Both the position numbers and the translations under genes were made by a program. This document shows, in pieces, positions 12,147 to 58,014 of a stretch of DNA of 59,685 nucleotides (the stretch's first letter is position 1; each line of letters opens with the position of its first letter). The DNA is from Alphaproteobacteria bacterium UBA6149 (lineage in GTDB: Bacteria; Pseudomonadota; Alphaproteobacteria; Rickettsiales; UBA998). The stretch lies in the NCBI GenBank assembly GCA_002423155.1, contig DIUV01000012.1:1-59685 (forward strand), read 5' to 3'. The notes under the pieces were generated by a model. The model saw nothing but the letters and a program-made list of their open reading frames with translations. It did no database searches and was not told the origin of the DNA.

Positions 12147-12782
12147 TCAACCAGCAAGATAAAGCGATTGCTTATTTCCCAATAATTTTTCATGCAAAGT
12201 CTTTAGCGCGGCAAATTCATGCGGATAGGCAAAATTTTGTTCGGGCATTTGCATAATCTCCGATATAGGTAAAATTTTGATGCCGCGTACTTCATTATGG
12301 GTAGCAACAAAGCTTGCTTGCTTATATTGTTCATCTCCAGTTAGTTTTTGCGCATGTTCTTGTAGTTGAACTAATTCTTCTGCGGTTAGCTCTAAAGCAT
12401 GACCATGATAACAAACTGGTAATGCAGGGTTTTTATAATCAATGCCGGCAGAAATAATTTGTAATCTTTGTGCGTCGGGAGCAATAATCGGCGTCCCTTC
12501 AGCATTCACAACTTCTTCGCGCAATTCGCGCACGGCACCTTCGGCTAATTGCTCTCCTGCGCTATTATTGCTACCTATATCTACATAGCCACCTGGTAAG
12601 CCGAGCCGTCCATCGCAGCGCTCTACTAACAATACAGATGGTTTAGCTTTGCGGCTTTGTATGCCATTACTAAGTGTAGGATTAAAATAACAAGCAACGA
12701 ACGAACCAACCGTCGCGGTTTTTACTGTATGCTCCATGGGTTCGGTTAAACTGGACCATGCGGGGAGTTTATTATCAGTCAT
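12147..12782 (-). CDS. Nudix hydrolase, probable ADP-ribose/NAD pyrophosphatase
   Basis: VLLVERCDGRLGLPGGYVD...GEQLAEGAVRELREEV Nudix box (with insertion); FAYPH resembles the LAFDH motif of ADPR-pyrophosphatase-type Nudix domains. Confidence 0.75.
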   Translation of the reverse strand: MTDNKLPAWSSLTEPMEHTVKTATVGSFVACYFNPTLSNGIQSRKAKPSVLLVERCDGRLGLPGGYVDIGSNNSAGEQLAEGAVRELREEVVNAEGTPIIAPDAQRLQIISAGIDYKNPALPVCYHGHALELTAEELVQLQEHAQKLTGDEQYKQASFVATHNEVRGIKILPISEIMQMPEQNFAYPHEFAALKTLHEKLLGNKQSLYLAG

Positions 12783-12797
12783 TTTTATTCTTTCTTT

Positions 12798-14402
12798 TTA
12801 AAAAAATTTTGATATTTCGTTGTAGAAAGGAGCAAACCCACCAAAAAAGTACTTTGACAATATTGATAAACCATAATAATTACTAATAATTGTTGTGATA
12901 ATTAACAATAATGATGGACATAAATGTATGTGATTTCTAAATGCTTTTAGAAATGAAAAATAAGGGTGGATTTTGATTAAAAATTGTGTTGGCGGGGGAT
13001 AAAAAGCTATTAACATCAACGGCATTAATGGCAGCATATAACGACCTTGAAAGCCATTAATATAATTATTTGTTAATGGATTCCATTGTATATGTAAGGC
13101 GAGTAATGTTAGAAAGAATGTTACTATAGTCACACATACTAATAGAATCCTTATTCTCATCAATAATAACAAGCCATATTTATCGTTATCTTCTTCAATG
13201 GGAGTGCGAGTAAATAATAATAAGAACGCCACAAACATAGCAATAATACTGGAAGTTTTGTTTACAGGTATTTTACTTTCTGTTAGCCCACCAATAGCTT
13301 GAAAAAAAACATCATCTGCCCAAAAGCTTTTATTGGTAAAAGTATTGTATAATATTTTTGCCGCCCGCATAGGTTGTGTTCTTAACAATAACATTTGTTG
13401 TTTAGGAGAGCTATGAATCATTTGATCTGTTTCATCATTCTTAATAAAATTATATTTACTTAGTCTGATTTGTTCGGCTTCTTTTATTTGTGGATCTAAG
13501 CTGTTTGATCTTTCTATTGCTGCTTGTAAAATCTTAACCGCTTCCATATTCCATACCATACCTACAGAGAATGAAATTATAAAAATTGTTGAAATAATAA
13601 TAGCTACCTGCTTGCTAGATTTTCTTATAATGTTAGGAATAAAAAGCAATGTTAGTGAAGTGAAATAAACTATTTTGCTTAAAGCAATAGCTATAGCTAA
13701 AGAAGATGTTATTAAATAATATTTACAAGAGAATACTTTATTTTCATTGTTTGGCGATAAATTTGTTCTTAATAAGAAAGAAACAAACAGCAAAATAAAT
13801 CCTATCGTCAAAGAATCAGCGCTTACCATAGAGCGCCCACACATTGCCATAGGCCACAACATCACGGCACAAATGCTCCATTGTGCGTAGGGAAGTTTCT
13901 TTATTGCATAAGCAATAAGCAACGTGCTTGATAACAATGATATTATGCGCAGCAGATAAAACAATACAAAAGGGGGTGTGTGTAAAGATTGAAAAATATA
14001 AGAAGATATTATAGTAGGAATATATGCGACTGGTGAATATAAATCAACCGTACCAAGATTATTTTGATATTTAACCAGTTCGTTTTTGGCAATATCATCA
14101 TTACCTGCATCTAAAATAGATTTCATAATATCGTAATTATACTGACCATTAAAGCCTATGCGAGGGCGAAAAGAGCTTCCTTTAATTAAAAAATCCACAT
14201 AAGATTTATTAATTTCATATTCTTGCCATATTTTACCTTTAGAATATCCAATAACCCTCATATAATGCCCATATTCATCGTGAGAGCGAAACGGTGGGGT
14301 AATAAATATATATGCAAAGCCTATTACAATGGATAATATAAAAAAAAGTTGATGAGGAAGAATAGGTGCGTTTCTTAGAAAAGAACTTTTATTTTTCAAC
14401 AT
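12798..14402 (-). CDS. GT-C fold integral membrane glycosyltransferase (DUF2142-like, GtrC role)
   Basis: TPPFRSHDEYGHY, LYSPVAYIP, GFQGRYMLP motifs; many TM segments; clustered with GT2 and GtrA genes. Confidence 0.72.
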   Translation of the reverse strand: MLKNKSSFLRNAPILPHQLFFILSIVIGFAYIFITPPFRSHDEYGHYMRVIGYSKGKIWQEYEINKSYVDFLIKGSSFRPRIGFNGQYNYDIMKSILDAGNDDIAKNELVKYQNNLGTVDLYSPVAYIPTIISSYIFQSLHTPPFVLFYLLRIISLLSSTLLIAYAIKKLPYAQWSICAVMLWPMAMCGRSMVSADSLTIGFILLFVSFLLRTNLSPNNENKVFSCKYYLITSSLAIAIALSKIVYFTSLTLLFIPNIIRKSSKQVAIIISTIFIISFSVGMVWNMEAVKILQAAIERSNSLDPQIKEAEQIRLSKYNFIKNDETDQMIHSSPKQQMLLLRTQPMRAAKILYNTFTNKSFWADDVFFQAIGGLTESKIPVNKTSSIIAMFVAFLLLFTRTPIEEDNDKYGLLLLMRIRILLVCVTIVTFFLTLLALHIQWNPLTNNYINGFQGRYMLPLMPLMLIAFYPPPTQFLIKIHPYFSFLKAFRNHIHLCPSLLLIITTIISNYYGLSILSKYFFGGFAPFYNEISKFF

Positions 14403-14414
14403 AAAGCACCAAAT

Positions 14415-15323
14415 TTATTGTGATAAATAATGTAACTGCTTCAATGACCTTCCCATTTTTGATACTGAATCTAAAATAAGTCCACAAGCCATAGAAATGG
14501 TTGAAATAATTGACAAACCTGTACACAATACCGCTGTTGGCAACCTTTCTACAGTTCCCACTGCTATAAAGTTGGCAATAATTGGAACGGCCAATACAAT
14601 CGAAACCAAGAATAAAAACAGAGAAATTGTACCATAAAATAATATGGGCTTGTTGTGCCGAGTAAAATAAACTATTGCAAGCAATATCTTAAGACCATCT
14701 CTATAGGTATTAAGTTTGCTTCTGGAGCCATTTGGACGAGGATAATATTCGGTTTCAATTTCTGCTATTGACAGATTCTGGTCTAGGGCATGTATTGCTA
14801 ACTCTGTTTCTATTTCAAAACTGGAGAAACTAACAGAAAAAGACTTAACAAATCTTCGTGATAACACCCTATATCCAGAAAAAACATCTTCAAAAGCCTG
14901 ACCAAACAATAATGAAATAAGAAATGTAAATAATTTGTTACCAGAAACATGACAAAATCTGTAGGCCATTCCAGCATCAACAGCAACTCTTCTTCCCACG
15001 ACCATGTCTAGTTTGTTGTTTATTAAGAAATCCAGCATTTGCGGTGCCTTACTTATTTGATAAGTTGCATCACCATCCGCCATTATGTAATAGTCTGCCT
15101 CAACATCACGAAACATTCTGCGGACAACACAACCCTTTCCTTGTTTTTTTTCTATCCGCACTATAGCTCCAGCTTTTTTAGCTATATCACCAGTTCCGTC
15201 ATTTGAATTATTATCGTAAACATATATCTTAGCTAAAGGCAAATATAGTTTAAAATCTGATATTACTTTCTCAATAGAGAGGGCTTCATTATAACAAGGA
15301 ATAATAACGGCTATTTCTGGCAT
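14415..15323 (-). CDS. GT2 polyprenyl-phosphate glycosyltransferase (GtrB/DPM1-like)
   Basis: IAVIIPCYNE, DNNSND, GKG, DGDATY, SGYR, FEIETEL; two C-terminal TM helices. Confidence 0.88.
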   Translation of the reverse strand: MPEIAVIIPCYNEALSIEKVISDFKLYLPLAKIYVYDNNSNDGTGDIAKKAGAIVRIEKKQGKGCVVRRMFRDVEADYYIMADGDATYQISKAPQMLDFLINNKLDMVVGRRVAVDAGMAYRFCHVSGNKLFTFLISLLFGQAFEDVFSGYRVLSRRFVKSFSVSFSSFEIETELAIHALDQNLSIAEIETEYYPRPNGSRSKLNTYRDGLKILLAIVYFTRHNKPILFYGTISLFLFLVSIVLAVPIIANFIAVGTVERLPTAVLCTGLSIISTISMACGLILDSVSKMGRSLKQLHYLSQ

Positions 15324-15352
15324 GATACTGCATTACATGTTTTAAATTTAAT

Positions 15353-15775
15353 TTAGATTGGTTTTTTAAATACAACAAAATTATAAAATACAAAGTTAAA
15401 TAATGCTGCAATAGCACTAGATAATAAAATTGAAATATCTCTATTTATAAGTGGGATTATGTATATAATCCCACAGAAAGCAAGGTAATTTATCACCCCA
15501 CCAAAAAGGCTTCCACTAAAATATAAGAAGAATTCTTTGGCTAATCCAACATAAGAAAATAATTCTCTATTTTGTTTGAAAGTTACCGTCCTGTTCCCAA
15601 TCCAAGTTACAAATATCGCAAAAAATATCGAAATTATACGAGAAAACGAATCATCAATGAGGTTTGAAAACATACGAAACACCGCAATATCTACAATCAT
15701 TCCGATAAAGCCAACGGTCAAAAATATTGCCATCTTTTGTTTATTTATCAACACATTCACCAAAGAAACAACCAA
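15353..15775 (-). CDS. gtrA: GtrA-family flippase-like protein
   Basis: FLTVGFIGMIVD, NRTVTF, NFVFYNFVVFK; four TMs. Confidence 0.8.
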   Translation of the reverse strand: MVVSLVNVLINKQKMAIFLTVGFIGMIVDIAVFRMFSNLIDDSFSRIISIFFAIFVTWIGNRTVTFKQNRELFSYVGLAKEFFLYFSGSLFGGVINYLAFCGIIYIIPLINRDISILLSSAIAALFNFVFYNFVVFKKPI

Positions 15776-15853
15776 GCTTTCACAATTTTTTACATATAAT
15801 TTTTTAATGTAGAACGCGTTGGTTTTAGTGTAAAGTTTTAAGTTGTGCTTAAA

Positions 15854-18800
15854 TTATGCTGCCAGTTGAAAACCTTGATCTAACTCATAAGTAGGGCTTT
15901 TTCTAACCTGTTCAGATAGTTCTTTTATGGAGTCCTGTAGTTTATCAAAATCTGCTTCTAGTAATCCAGTTTTGAACTCTTTATCAAAAATCGCCATTTT
16001 ATGGGCAGTTTGCAAACTCATGCCCGTTTTGGCTCTAAAGCCATGTTCACCTAGTTTTTCGTATAATACATCTAAGCTTAACTCTGCCATGTGGGTTTTG
16101 AAATGGTCGCCAATTTCGTGGGTGCGTACATCATCATGCGGAGTTACATTTTTGCCTGTATGCGGTGCGCGAGTGGCTGCGGTGCGCTTGAATTGTCCAC
16201 GCTCCCAAGCATTAGTGAACTTCAACATCATATTGCGTAAAGCCACTGAATCTTTGGGGAACAAATCATCTTGTTTTAAGATTTCAAACGCTTCGGTAGG
16301 CGTATTGCGATCTAACACGATGACATCCACCATTTTATCTCCTTGCGGATAGGTAAAGCCGAAATCTTTTTCGTCGGTTTGTTTTGCCTCGCCTGCTACT
16401 TCTTGGCGCAATTCTGCTGATGGAGCTTGTTGGTTGATGAGTGACAAAGCCTTAATTGGTTTTAACTCTGCCAAACCATTTGCTTCCATGTAAGCAAGGC
16501 CAGCAGTTATATCATGCTTTTGTATGCCCCCTATTGGGTTAGCACCGCCCATATGCATATCACCACCAATAGTAGTATATCCCAAAGCGGATTCAGAAGC
16601 GTTAGAGGTAACCAACGCAATTTTTTTCTGGATATTCCCCAAAGCTCCCGGAGTTATAACCCGAACGCGTGCCTGATAATTTTGCAATGCCACGTCAAAA
16701 GCAGGATCTGACCAAGTGGGTATTTCTTGTTTGCAAGCAGCAGATATATAATCTGGCAATTTAGGATGGCTACCCAAAGGAGCATAAATATAATTGGTAA
16801 TAATTTTCTTTATGCGTCCTTCAGATATATGTAACTGATCTTCTTCGGATAAATTTTCAGTATTTAATCCTTGTAAAGCTATATCTTTATTTTCTCTAGC
16901 AAACCGAGTTAAATCTAGTCCTGAAGAACCAATAATTGCTTCATCAACAATTCTTTGTTGGGGGGCAACGTAAAAATTTCCACCAATACCTTGAATATCG
17001 TGTTCTATGTTTACTATTTCATAGGTTTCTTTTTTATTGTCTTTTACCCATTTTGTTAGTTGATTATTTTCAATTTTATCTAATGTTTGATCAAAATAAA
17101 TCTTCTTGGTGATTGGCTGGTCATGTTCGTCTTTTAAAACATTTCCTTGCTCATCTTTAGCCAATACTTCAACTAAAGTTCCACCTTCAATCAAAAATCT
17201 TGCCGCATCTTGGGTTTCTTTAGAGCTAATATCGGTAGGCAAATAAACGCAGGTTAGAAGATTTTTCTTTATTGCTGCTATGGCTGCTTTTTCACCTTCT
17301 GCTTGTTCTATTTTTAGAGCTTCATCTTTGTATTCAAGTTTTGGAAAATGTTCAAAAAATCCTTTTATGCCATTTTCTTTAACTTCTAATTCCACCATGC
17401 TGGCAACTTCAACCGCACCATAAGCGGAATCTTTTCCACCAGATAATGATACTACAAACCCCTGACAAAAGGGCTGTTTCTGCATATAATCACGCATCCA
17501 CAAAGCAATAGAGCGAGCATATTCTTCATGTTTTAAATCTGACTTTTCAGCATATTCAAAAACATTTTCTGCCCCCGTTGCCTCGCCTACCACGTGCTTA
17601 TCGCTAAAATGATGTTTAATTTCCACATCGGGCTTATAATTGCGCTCCGCCAGAGGGATTTCGGCGACTAAACTACTGGTGGATACGTCTTTGAAACTAT
17701 AACGATCCCCATGATGGACGATTTTACCATTTTGGGCAAAAATCTGGCTACCTTCGGCCGCCATAGTGCCGGAATTGGTGCCTAAGAAATTGGTGTAAAT
17801 ATATGCTCCGCAATGTTGCGAGCCGGTTTCGCACAAACCCTTCGAGCGGATAGATTCTTTATCCAGGCTCGGCTGGGGTTTGCTGGCGCTGGGGTTTAGC
17901 ACCACACCTATATCGGTATCTTTCGATAATCTTGCTAAATAACGCGCCTGTTCTTTTTCGCGGTTATTAATGCTAGAATCATCACCCACGCCCGGCCAGC
18001 CTTCGGCGCAAATTTCGTGGAATAAGGTGATGTGCCGACCATCCGCCGCTTGCAGACCAACCACAGGTTTACCAAAGGGAACTTTTTTGCCGTTCGGTAA
18101 GGCAATTTCAATGGTGCCTTTGCTAACTGGCCAAGCGTTGAATTGGCGAGGTTCGTATTCAGCTGCTCCGTCTGCCAAAATAGACTTAGCAGAAATAGCG
18201 ACCACCTCTCCACCAGCAATGGTTATTTGCGTATTAAAGGGGCGGTTATTGATGTTATATTGTGGATCATCCGCAGGGAAACTTTTATCTGCATAATGCC
18301 AAGGCGCGCCTACGGAAATTACTAAATTGGGGTTTTTATCTTTGGCATATTTGGCGATTAATTGCAGCGCTTCCCACACATGGTCATTATTTTTATTCCA
18401 TTGATGATAATCATCCGCGCCATAGCCCACTAAGCCCATTTCTTCGAGCGCTAAAATATCCACATTGGCTTTTTCCGCTTTATCAATCGCCGCGCAGATA
18501 TTTTTTACGTTAGTAGCAAAATCATAAGAAGTCTGGTTACAACTGCCCGACATAATATTAACCGGAACAGTTGCTTTCACTTGCGTAGTTTTATTCAGCT
18601 CATCCGCTTTGTTTTTCAAACTATCAATAGTTAATTCCTGACCATCTGCTTGCAGCGCCGAAATTATTTGTGCGGTAGAAATATGTTTTTCTTTTGCCAA
18701 ACGGTCTAAACTCAAATCCAACATAGTAAGGGGAATATTTGCCGCTTCTAACGCCTCCGCACTCGGATTAGCGGCGCGTGCCTGCTTAGCCAAAAACACA

Positions 18801-19432
18801 ATATATTCCGGATCAGCAAAGGCAGATTTTTCTTTATCACTTAAATTACGCAAATCCTTCACCCGTAATTGGCTAGCGGCCATAGTGGGGGAGGTTGGTT
18901 GCTCTACCAATGCCGGGAAATTCATTTCCGTGAAAGTTTCTTCCCAGGAATATTGATGTTTTACGCTGCCATCTTCCAAAGTTCGTTGTGCTACGGCATC
19001 TTCAGGTTTGCCGACGAAATAATGCATAGTTTTGTCACGCAAATCTGGGTGCTTGCCGTCTATTTCTATTTCGCCATTTAGTTTGTTGACCAGATTCCGA
19101 CACCAAAGATTATTATTTCCCAAATCTTTATAGCCGACCAAAACATAATCTTTGCCTTCTTCTTTATCATGCAAAGCGCGGCGCAATTGTTCTTTTTGTT
19201 GCTCTAACGTCAACGGGTTTTTGAGCGGGCTAAACAGACCATCATCAAAGCCATTTTCTTTTACCGCTTCGTTGCAAGAACCAATCACAATAATGGGCAC
19301 CAGGCCTTGCTCCATATTCTTACGAATAGTTTTCAAATGCTCCTGATGCAAAGGCTGCCGCCGCCCGAATAAGAGCGAATATTCAATTCCTTGTTCGCGT
19401 GCTTGTTCAAAATTGGCAAAATTCTCAACCAT
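15854..19432 (-). CDS. nadE: Fusion protein: NadM-like NMN/NaMN adenylyltransferase domain + glutamine-dependent NAD+ synthetase (nitrilase + synthetase domains)
   Basis: N-term LFGRRQPLHQEH, IVIGS, KNPLT, MAASQLR (NadM-like); nitrilase triad in LEEMGLVGY / SAKSIL / EICAEGW; synthetase VVSLSGGKDSA, QNYQARVR, SNASESALGY, PSAEL, QTDE, QFKR. Confidence 0.85.
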   Translation of the reverse strand: MVENFANFEQAREQGIEYSLLFGRRQPLHQEHLKTIRKNMEQGLVPIIVIGSCNEAVKENGFDDGLFSPLKNPLTLEQQKEQLRRALHDKEEGKDYVLVGYKDLGNNNLWCRNLVNKLNGEIEIDGKHPDLRDKTMHYFVGKPEDAVAQRTLEDGSVKHQYSWEETFTEMNFPALVEQPTSPTMAASQLRVKDLRNLSDKEKSAFADPEYIVFLAKQARAANPSAEALEAANIPLTMLDLSLDRLAKEKHISTAQIISALQADGQELTIDSLKNKADELNKTTQVKATVPVNIMSGSCNQTSYDFATNVKNICAAIDKAEKANVDILALEEMGLVGYGADDYHQWNKNNDHVWEALQLIAKYAKDKNPNLVISVGAPWHYADKSFPADDPQYNINNRPFNTQITIAGGEVVAISAKSILADGAAEYEPRQFNAWPVSKGTIEIALPNGKKVPFGKPVVGLQAADGRHITLFHEICAEGWPGVGDDSSINNREKEQARYLARLSKDTDIGVVLNPSASKPQPSLDKESIRSKGLCETGSQHCGAYIYTNFLGTNSGTMAAEGSQIFAQNGKIVHHGDRYSFKDVSTSSLVAEIPLAERNYKPDVEIKHHFSDKHVVGEATGAENVFEYAEKSDLKHEEYARSIALWMRDYMQKQPFCQGFVVSLSGGKDSAYGAVEVASMVELEVKENGIKGFFEHFPKLEYKDEALKIEQAEGEKAAIAAIKKNLLTCVYLPTDISSKETQDAARFLIEGGTLVEVLAKDEQGNVLKDEHDQPITKKIYFDQTLDKIENNQLTKWVKDNKKETYEIVNIEHDIQGIGGNFYVAPQQRIVDEAIIGSSGLDLTRFARENKDIALQGLNTENLSEEDQLHISEGRIKKIITNYIYAPLGSHPKLPDYISAACKQEIPTWSDPAFDVALQNYQARVRVITPGALGNIQKKIALVTSNASESALGYTTIGGDMHMGGANPIGGIQKHDITAGLAYMEANGLAELKPIKALSLINQQAPSAELRQEVAGEAKQTDEKDFGFTYPQGDKMVDVIVLDRNTPTEAFEILKQDDLFPKDSVALRNMMLKFTNAWERGQFKRTAATRAPHTGKNVTPHDDVRTHEIGDHFKTHMAELSLDVLYEKLGEHGFRAKTGMSLQTAHKMAIFDKEFKTGLLEADFDKLQDSIKELSEQVRKSPTYELDQGFQLAA

Positions 19433-20060
19433 GGTAGTGTCCCTGTTTTTCGGCTTTAGTTAATTCAGCTGCTGATGTTTTTATTTTTATTGTTGGCTTA
19501 ATTATTTTGGGAGTTAGGGCTTGCTCAATAGTTTTTTCTAAAAATTCCACAGCAGTTTCCATGGTTTGCCGTCTATCCGCTGTGCGTTCTCCCTTAAAGT
19601 GAAATTCATCACACATAAAAACTTCCCCATTAACCGCCGAGGCAATACACACCGTACCCCCAGAAATTCCCCGCGCATCGTCACCATTAGGGCCTGCATA
19701 ACCAGTAACCGCTACCGAAATTTGTGCCCGGGAATTTTTTAATGCTCCCAAAGCCATTTCTCTGGCCACGGGCTGGCTTACTGCCTCATATTCAGCTAAA
19801 GTTTCTGCCTTTACTCCAAGCATATCCTGCTTAGCATCATTATTATATACTATATAAGCACGATCTAACATATTTGAAGATCCGCCCAAGCAGGTAAGCA
19901 AATTAGCAATGCCGCCCCCCGTAAGCGACTCTGCGGTTACGATTTTTATATGATGATTCTTGCACTTTTGCAGCAAACCATCTACGCGGCGCAATAAATC
20001 TGCCCCATAAATATTTAATAATTCAGGGTCGTAAATAGTACCCGAAAGATTATCGCTCAT
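19425..20060 (-). CDS. pncC: NMN deamidase (CinA C-terminal domain)
   Basis: TAESLTGG, YNNDAKQDMLGV, AVS...EMALGA, VTGYAGP, GTVCIA, GER..DR motifs; overlaps the nadE-fusion start. Confidence 0.88.
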   Translation of the reverse strand: MSDNLSGTIYDPELLNIYGADLLRRVDGLLQKCKNHHIKIVTAESLTGGGIANLLTCLGGSSNMLDRAYIVYNNDAKQDMLGVKAETLAEYEAVSQPVAREMALGALKNSRAQISVAVTGYAGPNGDDARGISGGTVCIASAVNGEVFMCDEFHFKGERTADRRQTMETAVEFLEKTIEQALTPKIIKPTIKIKTSAAELTKAEKQGHYHG

Positions 20061-20320
20061 AGCTTAAAACCATATTTGTCATGCATTTTCTGTAGCACAG
20101 ATTCATTAGGCGCATCTCCATAACCTGACTCAATCACTTCACCATATTCAATCAAATTAATCGCCCCCGTTTTGATTTTTTGTAAAAATGAGCGCAATTT
20201 CAGAGCTTCTACTTTCAAGAAAAACCACGCAGGGCGGCCAGTTTTATCCTTGCCACCTTGCACGAGATAAATATTTTGGCTTTCTCTGAAGTTAGAAATT
20301 TTCTGGGCGAAAGAGGTCAT
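20057..20320 (-). CDS. Small conserved hypothetical protein (87 aa)
   Basis: ATG 20320 lies 4 nt after the pncB stop and its stop overlaps the pncC start (ATGA); sequence IYLVQGGKDKTGRPAWFFLKV...YGEVIESGYGDAP looks like a folded domain. Confidence 0.75.
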   Translation of the reverse strand: MTSFAQKISNFRESQNIYLVQGGKDKTGRPAWFFLKVEALKLRSFLQKIKTGAINLIEYGEVIESGYGDAPNESVLQKMHDKYGFKL

Positions 20321-20324
20321 TCTA

Positions 20325-22190
20325 TTATGCTGCCATAGAAGGTGATTTTCCACCAGCTATTTCCAGCGAACCAGAAATATCAGTACCAGGTTTATTCATA
20401 GACGCCATAATTGCCTGACGTTGTTTTAAAACCAATGGGTCCATCAAAATTATTTGTGGTTTGGGGTCGTCTAGTCTTTTTATTTCCTCAGATAGGCTGG
20501 CTCGTTGAGCACGGGCGTAAGTTTTAATCTCATCTAAGTCAGTAACTTCTGGGCCGCCTTTATAAGCAGGTTTAGTTTTAGGCGCACCATGCTCATTATA
20601 AACATATTTAGAAGCAGCATCTTTTTGACGCACAAAGATAGGTTTCAACAAAGTTTCGGCTGACGCAACCTCGCCTACGTCTATTTTATTACCTGCGGTA
20701 TCTACGATACCATCTTGTAGCAATTCACGCCAGTTATCACCACGACGCAAAGACTCATCAATAATAACATCCGCCAATATTTTGCCATTAGCATCTTTTA
20801 AGCGCAGCGTATTTAGCTCTACTCCTGGCATAGAAGATTTAGGGCCAGGAAGCGAAGGATCATTTTTATCCACTCCCGCAACTTTCATAGTGCGTACCAT
20901 ATCTTTGGTAATCGGCACAACTTTCTGGTTAACTATAGCAGTTTTAACTTCGCCATTTTCTAAATTTGCTTCAAAATCTTCATGAATAATTTCACTCGCA
21001 GATATTTTGTAAACTCCTCCGCGTAATGGCCCTGGATTGCCTAATTCGGTGCCTACTCCGTAAACTTGGATAGGTAATTTTTCGCCTTTTTCTTCTATGC
21101 TACGTTTTTGCATCGCATGAATAGATTTTTCATCTAAACCATCAGTGGCAAAAATCTTGGTATTATTAAATAATTCAGGGTGGGTTTGGCGTGCTTCGTC
21201 TAGCAATGCTTTTGCTTCCCAGCTTAATGCATATAAATCACCCGAATCCAAACGCACACCGTCTAACTCTACGTTCATTTCTATGGCCGCACGAATAGCG
21301 TTTTTAACCCCCTGTACGGGATCAAAAGTATCAACTAACAATACTGAATTATTCGCCATGCTTTTTAAATAAGCTTTAAAAGCAATTAGTTCTAACTCGC
21401 TATTGCCAACATTAGGCCATGCGGCATCAACGGTTTGTTTTACATTATTTTCAAAAAATTCCCTGTCGTCACTGGTGTAATAAGGGCTTATCCATTCAAT
21501 CCCTGCTTTTTTAGCTTCTACATAGCCCTCAAAAGCGGCTTTAAAGCCCATAATCCAGCTATGCGCCATAGTTCCTGTGGGCGGAATACCCAATACACGC
21601 GCGGCATCAACATCCGCCGTAAAGGCGGCGCCACCAATATAAGAAGCACGAGAAACCCCAGCGTCTAAAGTGCCAGAACGGCGTAAAGAAAAATCGGCAA
21701 AGGGGCGACCTTGTCCTGCTTCATCAATCCGCGCACCACGAGTTGCAATAATTGAAGCAGAATTCATAATATTTAAAATAGCCGACTCGACTAATTGCGC
21801 CTGAACTAGAGAACCAGTAATCCGCAAAGCAGGCCCTTGCCCAAGCATAGCGGTTCCCTCGGGCACTGCATCTACTTGTAAATTAAGTTTAGAATTAGCT
21901 AGATAATTTAAAAATTCTTCAGAGAAAAGCCGCTCGCCTTTTTTCTCTAGGGTACGCAAATAGGCAATTTTTTCTTCATCAAATTTGAAATTATTTAAAA
22001 AATCAACTACACCCTCTAAACCAGCAGCAACCGTATAACCACCACCAAAGGGAGGATTGCGCCAATGCATGTAAAAAGTTGCTTCTTCTTCCTGCCGACC
22101 TTGGTCAAAATAACCTTGCGCCATGGTTAACTGGTACATATCGGTTTTAGTCGGGTTTAAATCCCGGTAGCTTTTTTCTAAATATCCCAT
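20325..22190 (-). CDS. pncB: Nicotinate phosphoribosyltransferase, with insertions and C-terminal extension
   Basis: TDMYQLTM, RNPPFGGGY, DFSLRR, GTMAHSW (phospho-His), LLVDTFD, GVRLDSGDL, GVGT; likely start ATG 22190 with AAAGGA RBS (track start 22250). Confidence 0.88.
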   Translation of the reverse strand: MGYLEKSYRDLNPTKTDMYQLTMAQGYFDQGRQEEEATFYMHWRNPPFGGGYTVAAGLEGVVDFLNNFKFDEEKIAYLRTLEKKGERLFSEEFLNYLANSKLNLQVDAVPEGTAMLGQGPALRITGSLVQAQLVESAILNIMNSASIIATRGARIDEAGQGRPFADFSLRRSGTLDAGVSRASYIGGAAFTADVDAARVLGIPPTGTMAHSWIMGFKAAFEGYVEAKKAGIEWISPYYTSDDREFFENNVKQTVDAAWPNVGNSELELIAFKAYLKSMANNSVLLVDTFDPVQGVKNAIRAAIEMNVELDGVRLDSGDLYALSWEAKALLDEARQTHPELFNNTKIFATDGLDEKSIHAMQKRSIEEKGEKLPIQVYGVGTELGNPGPLRGGVYKISASEIIHEDFEANLENGEVKTAIVNQKVVPITKDMVRTMKVAGVDKNDPSLPGPKSSMPGVELNTLRLKDANGKILADVIIDESLRRGDNWRELLQDGIVDTAGNKIDVGEVASAETLLKPIFVRQKDAASKYVYNEHGAPKTKPAYKGGPEVTDLDEIKTYARAQRASLSEEIKRLDDPKPQIILMDPLVLKQRQAIMASMNKPGTDISGSLEIAGGKSPSMAA

Positions 22191-22261
22191 GATTTTTCCT
22201 TTTTTGTTTTTATTTGGCAAAAAGTTTAATGATTTTTTATATCTTGTCAATTATTTATTAA

Positions 22262-23458
22262 CTAAATAGCAATATCTGCACGCTGCCAACTAGCCACACG
22301 ATTAGCAAAAGGCGAAGGCTTGGTGAGCGCTAATGGTATTTTCTGTTGCCGCGTCAACTCTTGCGCGATTAATTTCCCGGTCGATAAAATCGCCACGCGC
22401 TCTTTTAATTCAGGAGAATTTAGTTCCTTACGTTTTTGTTCTATTTCAAAAACCGAGTCGGTACAAACCACTTGGTCTATCAGATTTTTTCCTGCAAATT
22501 GCGGCTCTAGTAGATTTTCCAATGCGGATTTCCCGTCTTTGCCGATGCAAATTGCGTGGGTGAAATAAGTGGCAACCGATTTTGCTCCACGCTCTTTCAA
22601 AGCCTTAGCAGCATTAATCAAAGTACCACCACCATCGCTCATATCATCGATTATTACGCAATCTTTATCTGCAACATCCCCCTCGAACCCAGCAACAAAA
22701 GTTTCGTTAGCGGATTTATGCTCTTTGGCGATTTTAAATAAATGCACATCCGCCGCCTCTTCGCTGGTATCTTGCACGGCGGCGGCGAGTTTTCGTGCAC
22801 GGATTTGTCCGCGATCATTAGGTTTATCCGCCCCATCAGGAGCTCCAATAACCATATTGTTTAAATTAGGAAAACGGGTTTTTATATCCTGCGCAAAAAG
22901 TTCGGTGCTAGATAAATAGTTATAATTTTCACCAAACTCATCTTTCCAGAATTTTACCGTTCCTTCGGAATGCGGTTCGATAGTAATGATTTTATCCGCC
23001 CCATCTGCGCGTAAATCACGAGCAAAACGTTTGGCATTTACTGAACAAATACGCCCTTGTTCGCTAAAAGGTCTATCTTGGCGGTCGTATGCGCAATTGG
23101 GCATCGCTACCGTAACTTCTTTTACCCCATGGTCTTTTAAGGTGGTAATAGTCGAACGAACGCGCTCTATACTATCACTTACTATATCTGGTTGTTCACC
23201 AGTTGATTCAACGATTGTAACTTTAGCATGACGTAATTTCGCCAAATTTTCCTGATAACGTTTCTGGGCGTCCGCATGGCTGGTAAGCTCACGCTCATCC
23301 CGCAAAAAAGGAAATAATTCACAATGGACTGCACCGCTATTAAAGGGTCCAAAACTGACATCAATTTTCTCCCCTTTAAAATTTTTAAGAATTTCCTCTC
23401 GGCTTTCCTTCGTAACTCGCGGACCAAAGATAATGTAATTTTTATTATTATTTTGCAC
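22262..23458 (-). CDS. prs: Divergent ribose-phosphate pyrophosphokinase (PRPP synthetase family)
   Basis: AYDRQDR, GADKIITIEPH, APDG, KDCVIIDDMSDGGGTL, LKERGAKSV...THA motifs; likely GTG start at 23458 with GGAG RBS. Confidence 0.8.
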   Translation of the reverse strand: MQNNNKNYIIFGPRVTKESREEILKNFKGEKIDVSFGPFNSGAVHCELFPFLRDERELTSHADAQKRYQENLAKLRHAKVTIVESTGEQPDIVSDSIERVRSTITTLKDHGVKEVTVAMPNCAYDRQDRPFSEQGRICSVNAKRFARDLRADGADKIITIEPHSEGTVKFWKDEFGENYNYLSSTELFAQDIKTRFPNLNNMVIGAPDGADKPNDRGQIRARKLAAAVQDTSEEAADVHLFKIAKEHKSANETFVAGFEGDVADKDCVIIDDMSDGGGTLINAAKALKERGAKSVATYFTHAICIGKDGKSALENLLEPQFAGKNLIDQVVCTDSVFEIEQKRKELNSPELKERVAILSTGKLIAQELTRQQKIPLALTKPSPFANRVASWQRADIAI

Positions 23459-23506
23459 GTAAATCACTCCGTTTTTAAATTGCGGAGGATTTAAACATGG
23501 GAAATA

Positions 23507-23531: not shown

Positions 23532-23789
23532 ACAATTGTCACCCTACACGACAGTACCGTTAATATTACGAAGCTATTGAATGGTAAGTATTTATTTCTT
23601 AAAATCGCTCTCTCCGTCGTCATTCCTGCTGCGGCTAAGAATCTCTTTTTCCGCTTGTGAGTGCCTCGTTTAGGGCGAAAGAGATTCTTAGCCGCAGCAG
23701 GAATGACGACGGAGAGAGCGAACTTTTTTATTGTATTTCAATATATAAATGCCTTGTTAATACTACTGTCGTGTAGGGTGGACAATTGT
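23532..23789. repeat. Nested palindromic element (family 3)
   Basis: Outer IR ACCCTACACGACAGTA / TACTGTCGTGTAGGGT; perfect 44-bp inner arms 23605-23648 and 23678-23721 containing GTCATTCC..GGAATGAC REP-type ends. Confidence 0.8.
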
Positions 23790-24000: not shown

Positions 24001-24077
24001 TGGTGCACCCAGAGCGATTCGAACGCCCGACCTTCTGATTCGTAGTCAGATGCTCTATCCAGCTGAGCTATGGGTGC
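24001..24077 (-). tRNA. tRNA-Arg (anticodon ACG)
   Basis: GCACCCA acceptor stem, TAGCTCAGCTGGATAGAGC D-arm, CTGACT-ACG-AATCAG anticodon arm, GTTCGAATC T-loop, encoded CCA end. Confidence 0.97.
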
Positions 24078-43298: not shown

Positions 43299-44537
43299 AT
43301 GTCTCAAGCAACCCCTTATAGCGCCGCGGCGGAGTCTTTGCGTCAGTTTATTGCTGGACATAATTCCAATAGCGACGCGGGTTTTCCTATTCCGCTGAGT
43401 GAAGTTAAGGTTAGCATGCATCCAAGTCATGATTCTGACAGTAAAAAAGAATCTTTGGCTATTCGCATCACCCTACCTAAAGATACGCAAGATTTAATTG
43501 GTCCGCGGCATGTAGAAAACGCCTTGCGTGCCATATTAGCAAAAATCCCGGCATTTGAGCCCTACGCAGATTTTAATGCCCCATTAGATACGATTGATAG
43601 TAAAGCCATTATTGCTAATTTGATGGCGCAACATCCTGATCGTTTCCCGCCAGCCGAAAAAGCGAAAATTCTTAATTGGAGCGGCTTTGAAACAGTTGAT
43701 GCGGAAGGGAATAAGATTGATCATTATAACAATGGCGACAAACCCAAAGCAGAAAATGATAATGGCAGAGTGTCCTTTACTTTTAGAAGCATACATACCG
43801 CAAAAGATGGGGAAATATGCACTTCTGAATTGCTTGCCCACCATTTACAACAACAAAAACAAGCCATAAAAGCCGAAATAATTCAGCAGGCTTGCGCTTA
43901 TAATGCCGCTTATCAACAACAACATGGCACGCCGTTATTTAATAATGCTGATTTGAATCTGATAGATATTCTCGCCACTAATAACGCAGGGCTATATCGT
44001 GATGGGGTTTCTATTAATATTGGCATTCCCAAAAGCCCTGCTTTGCCTAATTATGCGCGTCCAGAAGATGCTCTTGGAGAATCTACCTTAGCAAAACTGG
44101 ATGTGACTGTGCTTGGCTCCATCATTGAACATGCGGTACTTAAAACCTGCTCACCCGAATTATTCTCTCGCATTGCGCCAGAAGATGCCATCAAACAGGA
44201 ATTGCAAGCTCGGTTAGCTGGTACTGGCAGTGATGCTACTTTAGAAAATTTATTTCATCATTCAGAATTATTTTCCAGTCGCTGGAGTAACAAAGAAAAT
44301 GAAAAAGACAAAATAAGCTTTTCTGACCATTGTTATAGAGATGCTCCCGACAAAGAAGGAGAGGGATCTGTGTCATTAACCATACAATTTCCACGCGGAG
44401 TAAGTGCTATGAATGTAGTGAACAGCATGGTTCCCCAAACGCAACATCCGCAACCACAAGTTAATAATGCACAACCGCAAGGAACAGTTAATATGTTCCA
44501 AGCGGCGGCTAATAAATTTGGTGGATTATTCCACTAA
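43299..44537 (+). CDS. Hypothetical protein (orphan, possible secreted effector)
   Basis: 412-aa open frame with AAAGGT RBS; no recognisable family; Pro/Gln-rich C-terminal tail. Confidence 0.7.
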   Translation: MSQATPYSAAAESLRQFIAGHNSNSDAGFPIPLSEVKVSMHPSHDSDSKKESLAIRITLPKDTQDLIGPRHVENALRAILAKIPAFEPYADFNAPLDTIDSKAIIANLMAQHPDRFPPAEKAKILNWSGFETVDAEGNKIDHYNNGDKPKAENDNGRVSFTFRSIHTAKDGEICTSELLAHHLQQQKQAIKAEIIQQACAYNAAYQQQHGTPLFNNADLNLIDILATNNAGLYRDGVSINIGIPKSPALPNYARPEDALGESTLAKLDVTVLGSIIEHAVLKTCSPELFSRIAPEDAIKQELQARLAGTGSDATLENLFHHSELFSSRWSNKENEKDKISFSDHCYRDAPDKEGEGSVSLTIQFPRGVSAMNVVNSMVPQTQHPQPQVNNAQPQGTVNMFQAAANKFGGLFH

Positions 44538-52469: not shown

Positions 52470-55400
52470 ATGTTGGATAATTATCAAAAATTATTTGAAG
52501 AAAAAATCACTGCCATACTTGCTAAAACAAATAATGCGGCAAGCACACCTTCTATCAGCCTGTTTACAAAGCAGTTTTACAACAAACTGCCGATTGCGGA
52601 CTTAAAAAAGATAGATAATCATCTCGCTGGGCAAATTGCCCTTTCTGCGTATGATTTTTTGCAAACGCGCACCCCCAATGAACCAAAAATTCGGGTGTTT
52701 AATCTACCCTCATCCTCTGAAAATTCGGCACGTGGGCTAACGATTATTGAAATAATCAATAATGACATGGCGTTTTTAGTTGATTCTATTTCCGCCACCT
52801 TAGTGCAGCAAGGTTTCACTATTTTAGAGACTATTCATCCCATTCTTCGCCTTAAGCGTGATAAATTAGGCAAATTAGAGCATCTAAGTGAAGATGCCAA
52901 CGAAACTTACCAAGAAGAATCCTTTATTCATCTACAAATTTCTCCTTTACCTGCCAATATCTCTGCTGAACAATTAGTAGAGAAACTGCAATTCACCCTT
53001 AAAAATGTCTATGCTTGTGTGCATGATTGGCAAGATTTAATGACCAAGGCAAATCAGGTTCGCCAAGAAATTGCGAGCATAAAGCAAGGGTTTGAACCAG
53101 CAGAAATCAATGAAGTGGCAGACTTCATGGGTTGGTTAATTGATAAAAACTTCGTTTTCTTAGGCTATATTGAATATGATTTCTTTGATAAAGATGGCAA
53201 AGAGAACTTAAGCATCGTAGAGAATTCCGCGAGCGGAATATTCAAAATAGAAGGCAATGGGCTAAAACAACGGGGCTTAGCCGCCCTGCCCGTAGAATTA
53301 CAACGTTTTGCAACGGAGCCTAATCTGATTGAAATTACCAAAGCATTGGTAAAATCTCCCGTTCATCGCATGGTGCCCATGGATTATATTGGCATTAAAC
53401 GTTTTGACAAAACAGGCAAAGTAATTGGTGAAAGCCGCTTTTTGGGGCTATTCACTTCGGTAGTATATTATCAAGGCGCCGATTCAATTCCCTTTATCCG
53501 CCGCAAAATCGCCCGCATCTTAGAACGCTCAGGATATGAATTAGCCAGCCATAGCGGAAAATCTCTCCGCGCCATTTTAGAATTTTTCCCTCGCGATGAA
53601 TTATTCCAAATATCCGAAGATGATTTATTTGATATATCCATTGGGGTAATGTCTTTAGAAGCAAAGCCAGAAATAAAAGTTTTTGCTCGCAAAGATCGTT
53701 ATGAGCGTTTTGTAAGCATATTTGTTTATATGCCGCGTGATCGTTTCAGCACCTTTGTGCGTGAACAAGTAATCAAGCTACTAGAAGAAGCTTATGAAGG
53801 CGCGATTTCTGATTTTTATACCCAATTGACAGATTCTCCCTTGGCGCGTTTGCAAGTTATTTTGCGCACCACTCCTAATCAGGTTGCCAACCCAGATTTA
53901 GAGCTCCTTTCCGACAAAATCACCGGATTAGTCCATTTTTGGGATGATTCTTTGCGCGAAGAATTAGGCAAAAACAAAGGCGAAGCGCAAGCGGAAGAAT
54001 TAATGCGCATTTTCCAAAATGCTTTTCCTAAGACTTATGTAAATTTCTATACTGCACCAGCCGCCGCACAAGACATTGAAAACATTTTAGAAACTATTGA
54101 TAGCCAACAACCATCGGTGTACTTGGAAGCTGGCGAAGCTAATAATTTCCATTTAAAAATAGCTACCACCGAGCAAAACACTGCTTTGTCGGATATGTTG
54201 CCGATTTTAGAAAATCTCGGTTGCCGCGTTTTAGATGTAAATCCCTTCACCATCACGCCCAATAATTGCCAACCCGTAATATTGCGCGACTTCACCTTAG
54301 CACTGCGCACAGGCGAAAAATTAGATATTGCCGCTTGCGCCGAGAATTTCCAGATAGCTTTGAAAAAAATCTGGTGCAAGCAAGTAGAAAATGATGGCTA
54401 TAACACACTAATTTTACGCGCCGGGCTAACTTGGCGCCAAGCAATGTTGTTGCGAGCTTATGGTAAATACATCAAACAAGTGGGCCTGCCCTATAACGAG
54501 GCTTATGTTGCGGCAGCACTAGAAGCACACCCCCAAATTGCGCATTTATTGGTAAAATTATTCGAAACGCGTTTTTCCATCAGCGAGAATGCTCAACGGG
54601 CAGAATTAGAAAAAGCTATCTTGAGCGAAATTGATACGGCTTTAGCTCGAGTAAGCAATCTAGCGGAAGACCGTATCTTGCGCCAATTCTCCGCCACGAT
54701 TATGGCGAGTTTACGCAGTAATTACTTCCAAACCGACGCGGACAATCAGCCCAAAACGTACTTGTCGATTAAATTAGACTCACAAAAAGTGCCGGAGCTA
54801 CCTTTGCCGCGCCCATTATACGAAATTTTCGTTTATTCCATCCGCACCGAAGGCATTCACTTACGCGGCGGCACGGTGGCGCGTGGAGGATTACGCTGGT
54901 CCGATCGCAACGAAGATTTCCGTACCGAAGTTTTAGGCTTGATGAAAGCGCAGATGGTAAAAAATTCGGTGATTGTTCCCGTGGGTTCCAAAGGTGGTTT
55001 TGTACTCAAACAAGCCACCAACAGCCGCGAAGCCCTCATGGAAGAAGGCATTTTTTGTTATAAACAATATCTCGCTGGTTTATTAGATATTACCGATAAT
55101 ATCATCGCCGGAAAAATTGTTCCCCCAGCCCAAGTGGTGCGCCATGATAATGACGATCCCTATCTGGTAGTCGCCGCCGACAAAGGCACGGCGAGTTTCT
55201 CCGACATTGCTAATTCTGTGTCCATAGAATACGGCTTTTGGCTGGGAGATGCCTTCGCCTCTGGCGGTTCTGCGGGTTATGACCATAAAAAAATGGCGAT
55301 TACCGCACGGGGCGCTTGGGTCTCCGTCGCGCGGCATTTTCGCGAAATGGGTATTGATATTCAAACGCAAGATTTCACCGTGGCAGGCATTGGCGATATG

Positions 55401-57275: not shown

Positions 57276-57710
57276 ATGGACAAAAAACCGACAAAAGAAA
57301 CCCCTCGCTGGAAATATCGCTTTGATAATTACCGCCGTGCGTTTTCTTTGCTGCGTGAGGCAATAGAACTAAAACAAGAACGCGAATTAACCCAACTAGA
57401 ACAAGAAGGTATTATCCAACGTTTTGAATATACTTGGGAGCTCGCATGGAAATTGCTCAAAGATTATCTTGAATATAACGGCATAAATCTGGCAACCATT
57501 ACCCCCAGCGCTACGATTAAAGCTGCTTTTGCCGCAAAAATCATTGCTAATGGTGAAGGTTGGATGCAGGCTTTAGATGCACGCAATAAAATGTCACATA
57601 CTTATGATTTTAAAGTTTTTTCACAGATAATTACTGATATTGAACAAAATTATCTGCATTTATTTGACCAATTATACATGAAGTTACTGGATAAATTATT
57701 GGAGGTATGA
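57276..57710 (+). CDS. HI0074-like HEPN protein (putative toxin)
   Basis: GIIQRFEYTWELAWK, RNKMSHTY (RxxxxH). Confidence 0.87.
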   Translation: MDKKPTKETPRWKYRFDNYRRAFSLLREAIELKQERELTQLEQEGIIQRFEYTWELAWKLLKDYLEYNGINLATITPSATIKAAFAAKIIANGEGWMQALDARNKMSHTYDFKVFSQIITDIEQNYLHLFDQLYMKLLDKLLEV

Positions 57711-57711
57711 C

Positions 57712-58014
57712 ATGTCGCAACATGGCTTAACTACCAGCCAACTGGAAATCATCGGCAAGATACTAAAACCATACGCAGACAAAATAGAAAAAGTCGGCTT
57801 TTTTGGTTCACGAGCTACGGGGAGATACACTCCCAGCTCCGACATTGATTTAGTGCTTTATGGCGATTTAGACACGAAAACCATCGACCATCTATGGACG
57901 CTTTTCGATGAAAGCAGCCTACCCTTCAAAGTAGATGTGCTCGCCTACCAATTAATCAACCATAAAGCTCTTAAACAACATATAGATGAAGTGCTATTAC
58001 CCATTAAGTTCTAA
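57712..58014 (+). CDS. Minimal nucleotidyltransferase (MNT, putative antitoxin)
   Basis: FGSRATG....SDIDL (GSx10DxD), LPFKVD; paired with the HEPN gene. Confidence 0.87.
   Translation: MSQHGLTTSQLEIIGKILKPYADKIEKVGFFGSRATGRYTPSSDIDLVLYGDLDTKTIDHLWTLFDESSLPFKVDVLAYQLINHKALKQHIDEVLLPIKF

Follow-up and report, generated by a model that had tools for sequence, protein, structure and literature searches.

C-terminal tails on the enzymes of a rickettsial NAD-salvage cluster: candidate address tags read by a co-encoded small protein

As far as the available text of PMC2330246 describes them, nicotinamide adenine dinucleotide (NAD) salvage operons of the NrtR regulon type combine pncA and pncB with nadD or nadM and nadE, or join prs to nadV, and a second prs is possible. 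Here we describe a NAD-salvage cluster of the rickettsial genome UBA6149 (G000; 2.1 Mb and 99%-complete), located in the 59,685-nucleotide stretch C3:1-59685 that was analysed as a whole and that we call the window. The minus-strand order is prs, pncB, a gene for a protein of 87 amino acids (aa), pncC, a nadM-nadE fusion, a block of GtrA, GT2 and DUF2142 genes, and a Nudix gene (Table 1). The cluster is like the NrtR-type operons in its enzyme set and in having a second prs committed to salvage, but it adds C-terminal tails, a NadM-NadE fusion with large insertions and the small gene. A Pfam scan found no NrtR-type domain on its Nudix protein. The PncB, adenylyltransferase and NAD synthetase domains that mark a Preiss-Handler pathway are all present in the one cluster, with weak profile matches for the NadM-like part of the fusion (approximately residues 1-285; best E 5.6e-6, below cut-off). 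The NadE residues E331, K416, C475, S664-G666, D668 and S669 are invariant in 19 sequences and PncB H220 in 22, and we take these to be the glutaminase Glu-Lys-Cys, the SGGxDS loop and the PncB His.

Two other described systems come close in other respects. The phage pathways NARP1-3 rebuild NAD (bioRxiv 10.1101/2024.02.11.579819, PMC13464706), and in the accessible part of these sources the likeness is an attacker-encoded set, with a Prs-fold enzyme, that would restore NAD from ADP-ribose and nicotinamide-derived fragments. Our cluster differs in being bacterial and of the Preiss-Handler type (PncB, NadM, NadE), and its products would be delivered as proteins rather than as genes. No Namat or NadV was seen in it, and its Prs is 24-30% identical to the phage matches listed. 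Identity with NARP1, NARP2 or NARP3 was rejected, as the cluster is chromosomal and has PncB and NadE, not Adps with Namat, NadV with NadM or PnuC with NadR on a phage. The second system is that of the Rickettsia rvh substrates RalF and RARP-2, which bind RvhD4 through their C-terminal tails according to the available text of PMC11077975. The likeness there is a C-terminal extension on a protein lacking a signal peptide, in a genome with rvh genes. What sets our case apart is that the cargo would be a metabolic pathway, that the motif is conserved and specific to the cluster, and that a putative small partner is encoded with it.

Small secretion adaptors or chaperones are encoded beside their cargo in the case of IcmS/IcmW of Dot/Icm systems and the class I chaperones of type III systems, and the XVIPCD of Xanthomonas and the BID of Bartonella are C-terminal recognition domains. 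The 87-aa protein is like these in being encoded beside candidate cargo and in that its domain, where fused, is C-terminal. It differs in that no sequence or fold match was found for it and in being mostly a free protein present in several copies. Encapsulin cargo-loading peptides are short Gly/Leu-containing C-terminal peptides on unrelated enzymes, and our tails are like them in each of these points. Cargo peptides of this kind were rejected, with family-1 encapsulin (PF04454) found in 0 of 5 genomes in a search that covered this shell family only.

The tails are real on PncB, PncC, Prs and NadM-NadE, which run approximately 21-28 residues past their shorter homologues; a C-terminal extension beyond the fold is thus present in four of the five cluster enzymes. 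The original prediction had claimed that the enzymes of the cluster end in extra, effector-like tails, and the five C-termini it quoted are all present in the sequence. In an alignment of 113 homologues, with six fusion proteins left out, PncB has 21 aa beyond the last core column compared to a median of 0 in 81 ordinary PncBs, one of which has at least 19. Among the clade members shorter than 700 aa (n=32), 23 have at least 19 extra residues and 7 have none, one of these being a fragment. PncC has 28 extra aa, where the median of 117 ordinary homologues is 0, and for both enzymes the expectation that ordinary homologues would lack the tails is borne out. In Prs the last NCBIfam-matched residue is 374 of 401, which leaves approximately 27 aa, and NadM-NadE is 21 aa longer at its C-terminus than the shortest member of its family. 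In the Nudix protein 26 aa follow the last conserved motif, in line with the 23-37 of eight cluster homologues, the proteins with which it was compared. As a base rate, 34 of 390 conserved proteins of the source genome have at least 18 unaligned C-terminal residues, and 5 of 390 outrun their orthologue by at least 18 aa. Hydropathy indicated no signal peptide and no membrane segment in the cluster enzymes.

A KP or KSP element had also been proposed in four of these ends, and it is found there, at 19, 22, 24 and 15 aa from the C-terminus. The criterion is satisfied by 89 of 1659 proteins, and four of five cluster enzymes would satisfy it by chance with P of about 4e-5, a value to be read in light of the criterion having been chosen post hoc. 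However, these elements are not one motif. A more specific signal is the peptide P-G-x-x-[IT]-x-G-x-L, approximately 20 aa from the C-terminus and conserved across the homologous clusters, of which we examined 15 loci in 14 genomes plus 10 loci, two of them repeats. We built a tail profile from 17 of 30 non-self PncB tails, chosen by their fit to a loose pattern. Among the 1659 proteins of the source genome it ranks PncB 1, Prs 367, PncC 403, NadM-NadE 1005 and Nudix 1437. A further protein, the orphan at 43299, had been put forward as bearing a comparable tail; it ranks 486, and nothing was found to link it to the cluster. This 412-aa orphan (43299-44537) has no Pfam or NCBIfam match and no paralogue, and its tail fits neither of the profiles tested.

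The profile also scores on unrelated enzymes of the homologous clusters: five of six PncA-like proteins, which are isochorismatase-family homologues, at 11.5-32 bits, one Prs at 14 and one NadM-IMPase fusion at 26. The background at 10 bits or more is 0 of 352, 0 of 530, 0 of 390, 2 of 1269 and 2 of 2191. The PncB-type motif is further seen in 5 of 47 Prs homologues and in the closest PncC homologue. Since Prs orthologues bear either this motif or a different type of tail, the tails appear to be swappable. In 6 of 6 PncB-PncA fusions no PncB tail is left at the junction and the protein is tailed at its new C-terminus, and the end tails scored low with the profile in the two fusions tested. In genome G228, where NadM is split from NadE, NadM acquires the motif. 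A motif restricted to the cluster in this way suggests that its reader is cluster-specific too. It is not a secretion signal used across the genome, and unbiased motif discovery on 352 orphan C-termini gave no sharp motif. These genome-wide negatives come from unbiased searches, none having been made with a hand-picked profile of orphan tails, and motif discovery on unselected cluster C-termini settled on the Nudix core. By eye we chose 19 source-genome proteins with tail-like ends, a selected set in which 15 have no Pfam match, and a 400-kb sample of a Dot/Icm genome held few orphan tails to set beside the cluster tails.

The ends of PncB and NadM-NadE are Ala-Ala, which we take to resemble a protease degron, and they bring up a neutral explanation, in which a NAD-salvage operon was acquired horizontally, its tails are neutral read-through extensions, or ClpXP-type tags that local recombination passed between neighbors, with the small gene as a passenger. 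The cluster is rare: of 400 Rickettsiales genomes, 12 gave a PncB match, and this patchy distribution fits such a history, as do the repeats and the tRNA-Arg(ACG) upstream, the latter a possible integration site, and a gene content in line with known salvage operons, second prs included, in the available text of PMC2330246. However, the homologous tails do not end in Ala-Ala, Pro and Gly are invariant in the tails of enzymes that are just 45-65% identical, and homologues of the small gene are retained within 8 of 8 rickettsial clusters that include nadE, across several families. We consider the neutral explanation distinctly unlikely.

The small gene was absent from the first list of open reading frames, and it overlaps the start of pncC. 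The 87-aa protein has no Pfam, NCBIfam or PDB match. Its predicted model is a confident, small alpha/beta fold with a predicted local distance difference test score (pLDDT) of 81.8, for which no Foldseek match was found at E 0.001; the best fold comparison (VIA) gave Z 3.8 and a root mean square deviation of 3.6 over 71 aligned residues. The cluster copies group together on the tree, with 2 label changes compared to 7.5 in shuffles (0 of 500 as low). Three more rickettsial pncB loci, on contigs of 3-8 kb, show no copy of the small gene, and their genomes hold the family. The family has members in 91 of 121 Rickettsiales genomes, with 6-7 copies in the source genome. None was found in the 10 carriers of the NadE family that lie outside the order, nor in two genomes within it whose PncB is ordinary and tail-less. 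The gene was considered as cREM-3/DUF2671, a small RvhD4-interacting protein in the available text of PMC11077975, and this was rejected: PF10877 gave no hit in 13 aligned members, and DUF2671 is a separate gene at C10:12976-13143. The unnamed C-terminal domains mentioned in the available part of PMC11077975 might include our small domain. A literature search, with subscription journals mostly outside its coverage, found no report of the small family or of a translocated NAD-salvage pathway.

The small domain also occurs in fusions. Among the best 150 of 2366 representative matches there are 30 proteins of at least 200 aa, and in 27 of these the domain lies at most 25 aa from the C-terminus. 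Its partners are kinase-TPR, TIR, caspase, NACHT/STAND and unknown proteins, with SecA once and a VirD4-family protein once. Examples with kinase-TPR-ZZ, TIR, caspase, NACHT and SecA are P0290, P0334, P0359, P0374, P0389 and P0408, one of them from Nostoc; such fusions suggest a wider adaptor role in conflict systems. By eye, orphan genes with Pro/Gly-patterned ends often adjoin other copies of the small gene. In one family, arrays of 90-140-aa orphans with similar Pro/Gly-patterned ends were seen at L204, L205 and L211, adjoining a small-gene copy that lies beside gltX. A profile of the N-terminal motif of the small protein ranks the Prs tail of the window 18 of 1659, and it reaches 8 bits or more in 4 of 18 Prs homologues. 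The background at that score is 0 of 390 among conserved proteins, 11 of 874 among the others and 20 of 2738 among interior windows, which hints, modestly, at mimicry of the adaptor end by some tails. The idea that a tail is the missing piece of the small domain found no support, with a motif-like score just upstream of the domain in 1 of 30 fused proteins. The small protein, of unmatched fold, is a candidate tag reader.

Taken with the motif data, the most likely role for the tails would be that of address tags read by the co-encoded 87-aa protein. As to what such tags are for, we put a probability of a little over one in three on adaptor-read tags for type IV (rvh) export of the cluster enzymes. 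We favor export because the tails are swappable, because the small domain behaves like an adaptor placed at the C-terminus and has been joined to secretion ATPases, and because tails persist where a spare cytoplasmic copy of the enzyme exists. The 87-aa protein would bind the tails and link the enzymes to the VirD4 of the rvh machine, which would deliver them into a contacted cell. Going by known chemistry, the Nudix hydrolase would there convert ADP-ribose to ribose-5-phosphate and Prs would make phosphoribosyl pyrophosphate from it. PncB would join this product to nicotinate to give nicotinate mononucleotide, which PncC would also supply from nicotinamide mononucleotide. NadM would then form nicotinate adenine dinucleotide, and NadE would turn it into NAD. 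The purpose may be to keep up the NAD of a prey or host cell against NAD-destroying defences. Basal Rickettsiales have been proposed to turn rvh against other microbes, and none of the verified effectors was found in free-living lineages (both from the available text of PMC9352585). In its boldest form the proposal is that free-living Rickettsiales inject a complete NAD-rebuilding pathway via rvh, with a dedicated member of an undescribed adaptor family, found across the order, that reads C-terminal tags, a protein-delivered counterpart of NARP, and that this adaptor is the long-sought rvh substrate-recognition factor; we hold this doubtful.

The secretion machinery that the original prediction called for is there: the source genome encodes an rvh-type system with virB8-11, virD4 and two virB4. 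Among 14 other genomes with the NadE family, 4 have a strong rvh-like VirD4 and 8 a Dot/Icm DotH, and G044 and G054 show neither match (2 of 14, with completeness not given for these genomes). The VirD4 match of G043 belongs to an open frame of 955 aa (G043:C10:43019-44344), approximately 330 aa longer than those of relatives. The TLC nucleotide translocase was not found in 11 of 12 genomes including the source genome, and thus there is no sign of host-nucleotide import by that route.

The behavior of NadE copies can be read in two ways. Eight of the 14 NadE-family genomes encode an ordinary NadE as well, as do 5 of 5 additional rickettsial genomes. Extra residues number 12-40 in each of the 11 NadE copies accompanied by a second one, while 5 of 7 sole or standalone copies have approximately 8 or fewer, and in G049 one tailed cluster copy occurs with one tail-less standalone copy. 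On a quick tree the tail label changes at least 3 times. The sole NAD synthetase found in G044 (L030:9944-12627) is broken by an in-frame TAG. Loss of tails on standalone copies would also be expected under the main rival, in which the tails dock the enzymes into a cytoplasmic complex where the small protein or NadE gathers PncA, PncB, PncC, Prs and NadM and channels labile intermediates, with no export. Confinement of the motif to the cluster, the single tail per polypeptide that is lost at fusion junctions, the motif gained by the split NadM, and the fusion being the only NadD/NadE activity found in the source genome all suit such a complex. It has difficulty with the Prs orthologues that exchange the motif for unrelated tails, with the Dot/Icm-lineage clusters, whose long tails differ in style and which lack the small gene, with G044, where PncB is tail-less though pncB is still beside nadE, and with a small family of up to 11 copies per genome, mostly far from NAD genes. 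To us a docking complex seems somewhat unlikely.

Several observations weigh against export of the enzymes through rvh, and the most direct concern NAD synthesis in the source cell. No ordinary nadE was found there by a family search and by tblastn with the NadE loci of 12 relatives, which leaves the fusion as the only NAD synthetase found; relatives often show etfA-nadE-gltX, and in the source genome etfA and gltX lie apart, both inside contigs. No nadD was found either, while 17 of 17 relatives of the family have it, and of 37 genomes checked for nadD only the source genome and G043, likewise a fusion carrier without ordinary NadE, gave no match. As nadA and nadC are present, NadM-NadE must, judging from this gene content, act in its own cytoplasm and serve the source cell itself, where it has also taken the place of nadD and nadE and must maintain the internal pool. 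Export of the whole pathway, as the original prediction had it, therefore cannot be the full story in the source genome, even though comparative data (the shared tail, the co-inherited small gene and the loss of tails in sole or standalone NadE) speak for it. Moreover, the source genome and G043 retain NadE tails although the copy is sole, the NadE counts include kin, which do not count as independent cases, and tail loss cannot be separated from departure from the cluster. To be exported, an oligomeric enzyme of 1192 aa would have to unfold, which is demanding. The co-occurrence with rvh is weak evidence because nearly all Rickettsiales have rvh. The VirD4-family fusion is 1 of 30, of a non-rvh type and 24% identical to rvh VirD4, and with TIR, caspase, NACHT and kinase-TPR as partners the small domain may be a general adaptor.

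The tails themselves add to these points. For a positive charge, as looked for in an rvh substrate tail, the picture is mixed: the net charge of the last 25 aa of the five cluster enzymes is +2, 0, +3, -1 and +1. In the source genome PncB alone bears the motif, with Prs, PncC, NadM-NadE, Nudix and the 43299 orphan lacking it. A hidden Markov model of the 17 tails, run on five whole genomes, gave 13 matches of which 12 were training tails and the remaining one had E 0.375. Class-pattern counting turned up no orphan-tail pattern that held in the source genome, where 37-48 of 874 exceeded the 95th percentile set by the conserved proteins, and no sharp tail motif was found on other candidate substrates there, where the Prs-type tail showed a weak enrichment. 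Orphans beside other small-gene copies were not enriched in the PncB-type profile (40 vs 228, p 0.17).

Some of this would be explained if the cluster were a relic, that is, an exported module in donors and relatives that was domesticated into the cytoplasmic NAD pathway of the source genome and whose tails are decaying. The absence of both nadD and nadE in the source genome and G043, the retention of the motif by PncB alone, the foreign genes inserted in the cluster and the tail-less state of domesticated copies elsewhere are consistent with this. So is the missing partner: the PncA-like protein of the clusters has no homologue in the source genome, and a distant isochorismatase-like candidate on contig C20 is without a Pfam match. 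However, the small gene has stayed intact and shares 36-49% identity with other cluster copies, the PncB tail still ranks first, and a redundant Prs is kept, tail included, in addition to a tail-less housekeeping prs at C50:80992-81924. We regard such a relic as unlikely.

Table 1. Coordinates of the NAD-salvage cluster and its flanking features in the window
Feature	Position	Strand	Basis
Second, divergent ribose-phosphate pyrophosphokinase (Prs), 401 aa	22262..23467	-	Pfam/NCBIfam
Prs tail, ~27 aa, type unlike PncB tail	22265-22345	-	NCBIfam match end; tails of 47 homologues
Nicotinate phosphoribosyltransferase PncB, 621-641 aa by start codon	20325..22250	-	TIGR01513 above cut-off; 113-homologue alignment
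PncB tail, 21 aa, bears P-G-x-x-[IT]-x-G-x-L	20328-20390	-	Held-out profile rank 1/1659
Small 87-aa gene, candidate tail-binding adaptor, between pncB and pncC	20057..20320	-	Open reading frame and homologues
NMN deamidase PncC, 211 aa; 28-aa tail 19428-19511	19425..20060	-	Pfam/NCBIfam, homologue tails
NadM-like adenylyltransferase and divergent glutamine-dependent NAD synthetase fusion	15854..19432	-	Pfam/NCBIfam
NadM-NadE tail, 21 aa	15857-15919	-	Compared to shortest family member
Low-GC block: GtrA, GT2 glycosyltransferase, DUF2142 membrane protein	12798..15775	-	Pfam
Nudix hydrolase, 211 aa, presumed ADP-ribose pyrophosphatase	12147..12782	-	Pfam; substrate inferred from gene context
Nested inverted repeats upstream of prs	23540..23780	.	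44-nt perfect arms 23605-23648 and 23678-23721 inside 24-nt arms
tRNA-Arg(ACG) directly upstream of cluster	24001..24077	-	Possible integration site

The nearest homologue of the cluster belongs to the same family as the source genome. Most of prs (22262-23467) lies beyond the end of the bounds first drawn for the cluster (12147-22330). The GtrA/GT2/DUF2142 block, between nadM-nadE and the Nudix gene, has a GC content of 0.30-0.35 compared to 0.39-0.43 in the NAD genes and was not seen in the homologous loci; it is an insertion outside the NAD set. No RNA holder was seen among the matches listed. The single-sequence structure prediction for NadM-NadE, at pLDDT 34, is too poor to use.

Several neighboring gene sets were noted along the way. 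A block of isochorismatase-like, vWA-like, PP2C phosphatase and kinase-like genes (G000:C20:49520-53964, L151; L027:1397-5990), a set that includes a presumed TerY-P-type triad, lies directly upstream of the cluster in G008 and on another contig in the source genome. A deaminase gene and a 928-aa Ham1/LOG fusion with a tail-like end (G000:C55:24967-29092, L149; L064:5889-8765) are possibly a second tailed nucleotide-salvage set, and a homologue of the fusion adjoins the NAD cluster in G312. A split coaBC and a coaD-coaE fusion with tail-like ends (L033:366-6150) lie directly upstream of the cluster in the Dot/Icm genome G047. A 1014-aa protein in which a subtilase is joined to a weak, below cut-off N-terminal asparagine amidohydrolase match, and which has a tail-like end (G000:C21:9708-12752, L137) is an effector candidate. 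Elsewhere in the window are a ParD/ParE pair (616-1147), a large NAD-dependent glutamate dehydrogenase (52470-57266) and a toxin-antitoxin-like nucleotidyltransferase with a substrate-binding partner (57276-58014).

To the questions of what the rvh machine exports in free-living Rickettsiales and how it chooses its substrates, this locus brings a concrete tag, a candidate reader and a cargo set. If export is true, restoring NAD inside the attacked cell would be a counter to NAD-depleting defences that bacteria share with phages. Should it prove wrong, the locus would still offer a new assembly tag, a swappable docking peptide whose small partner matches no listed fold.

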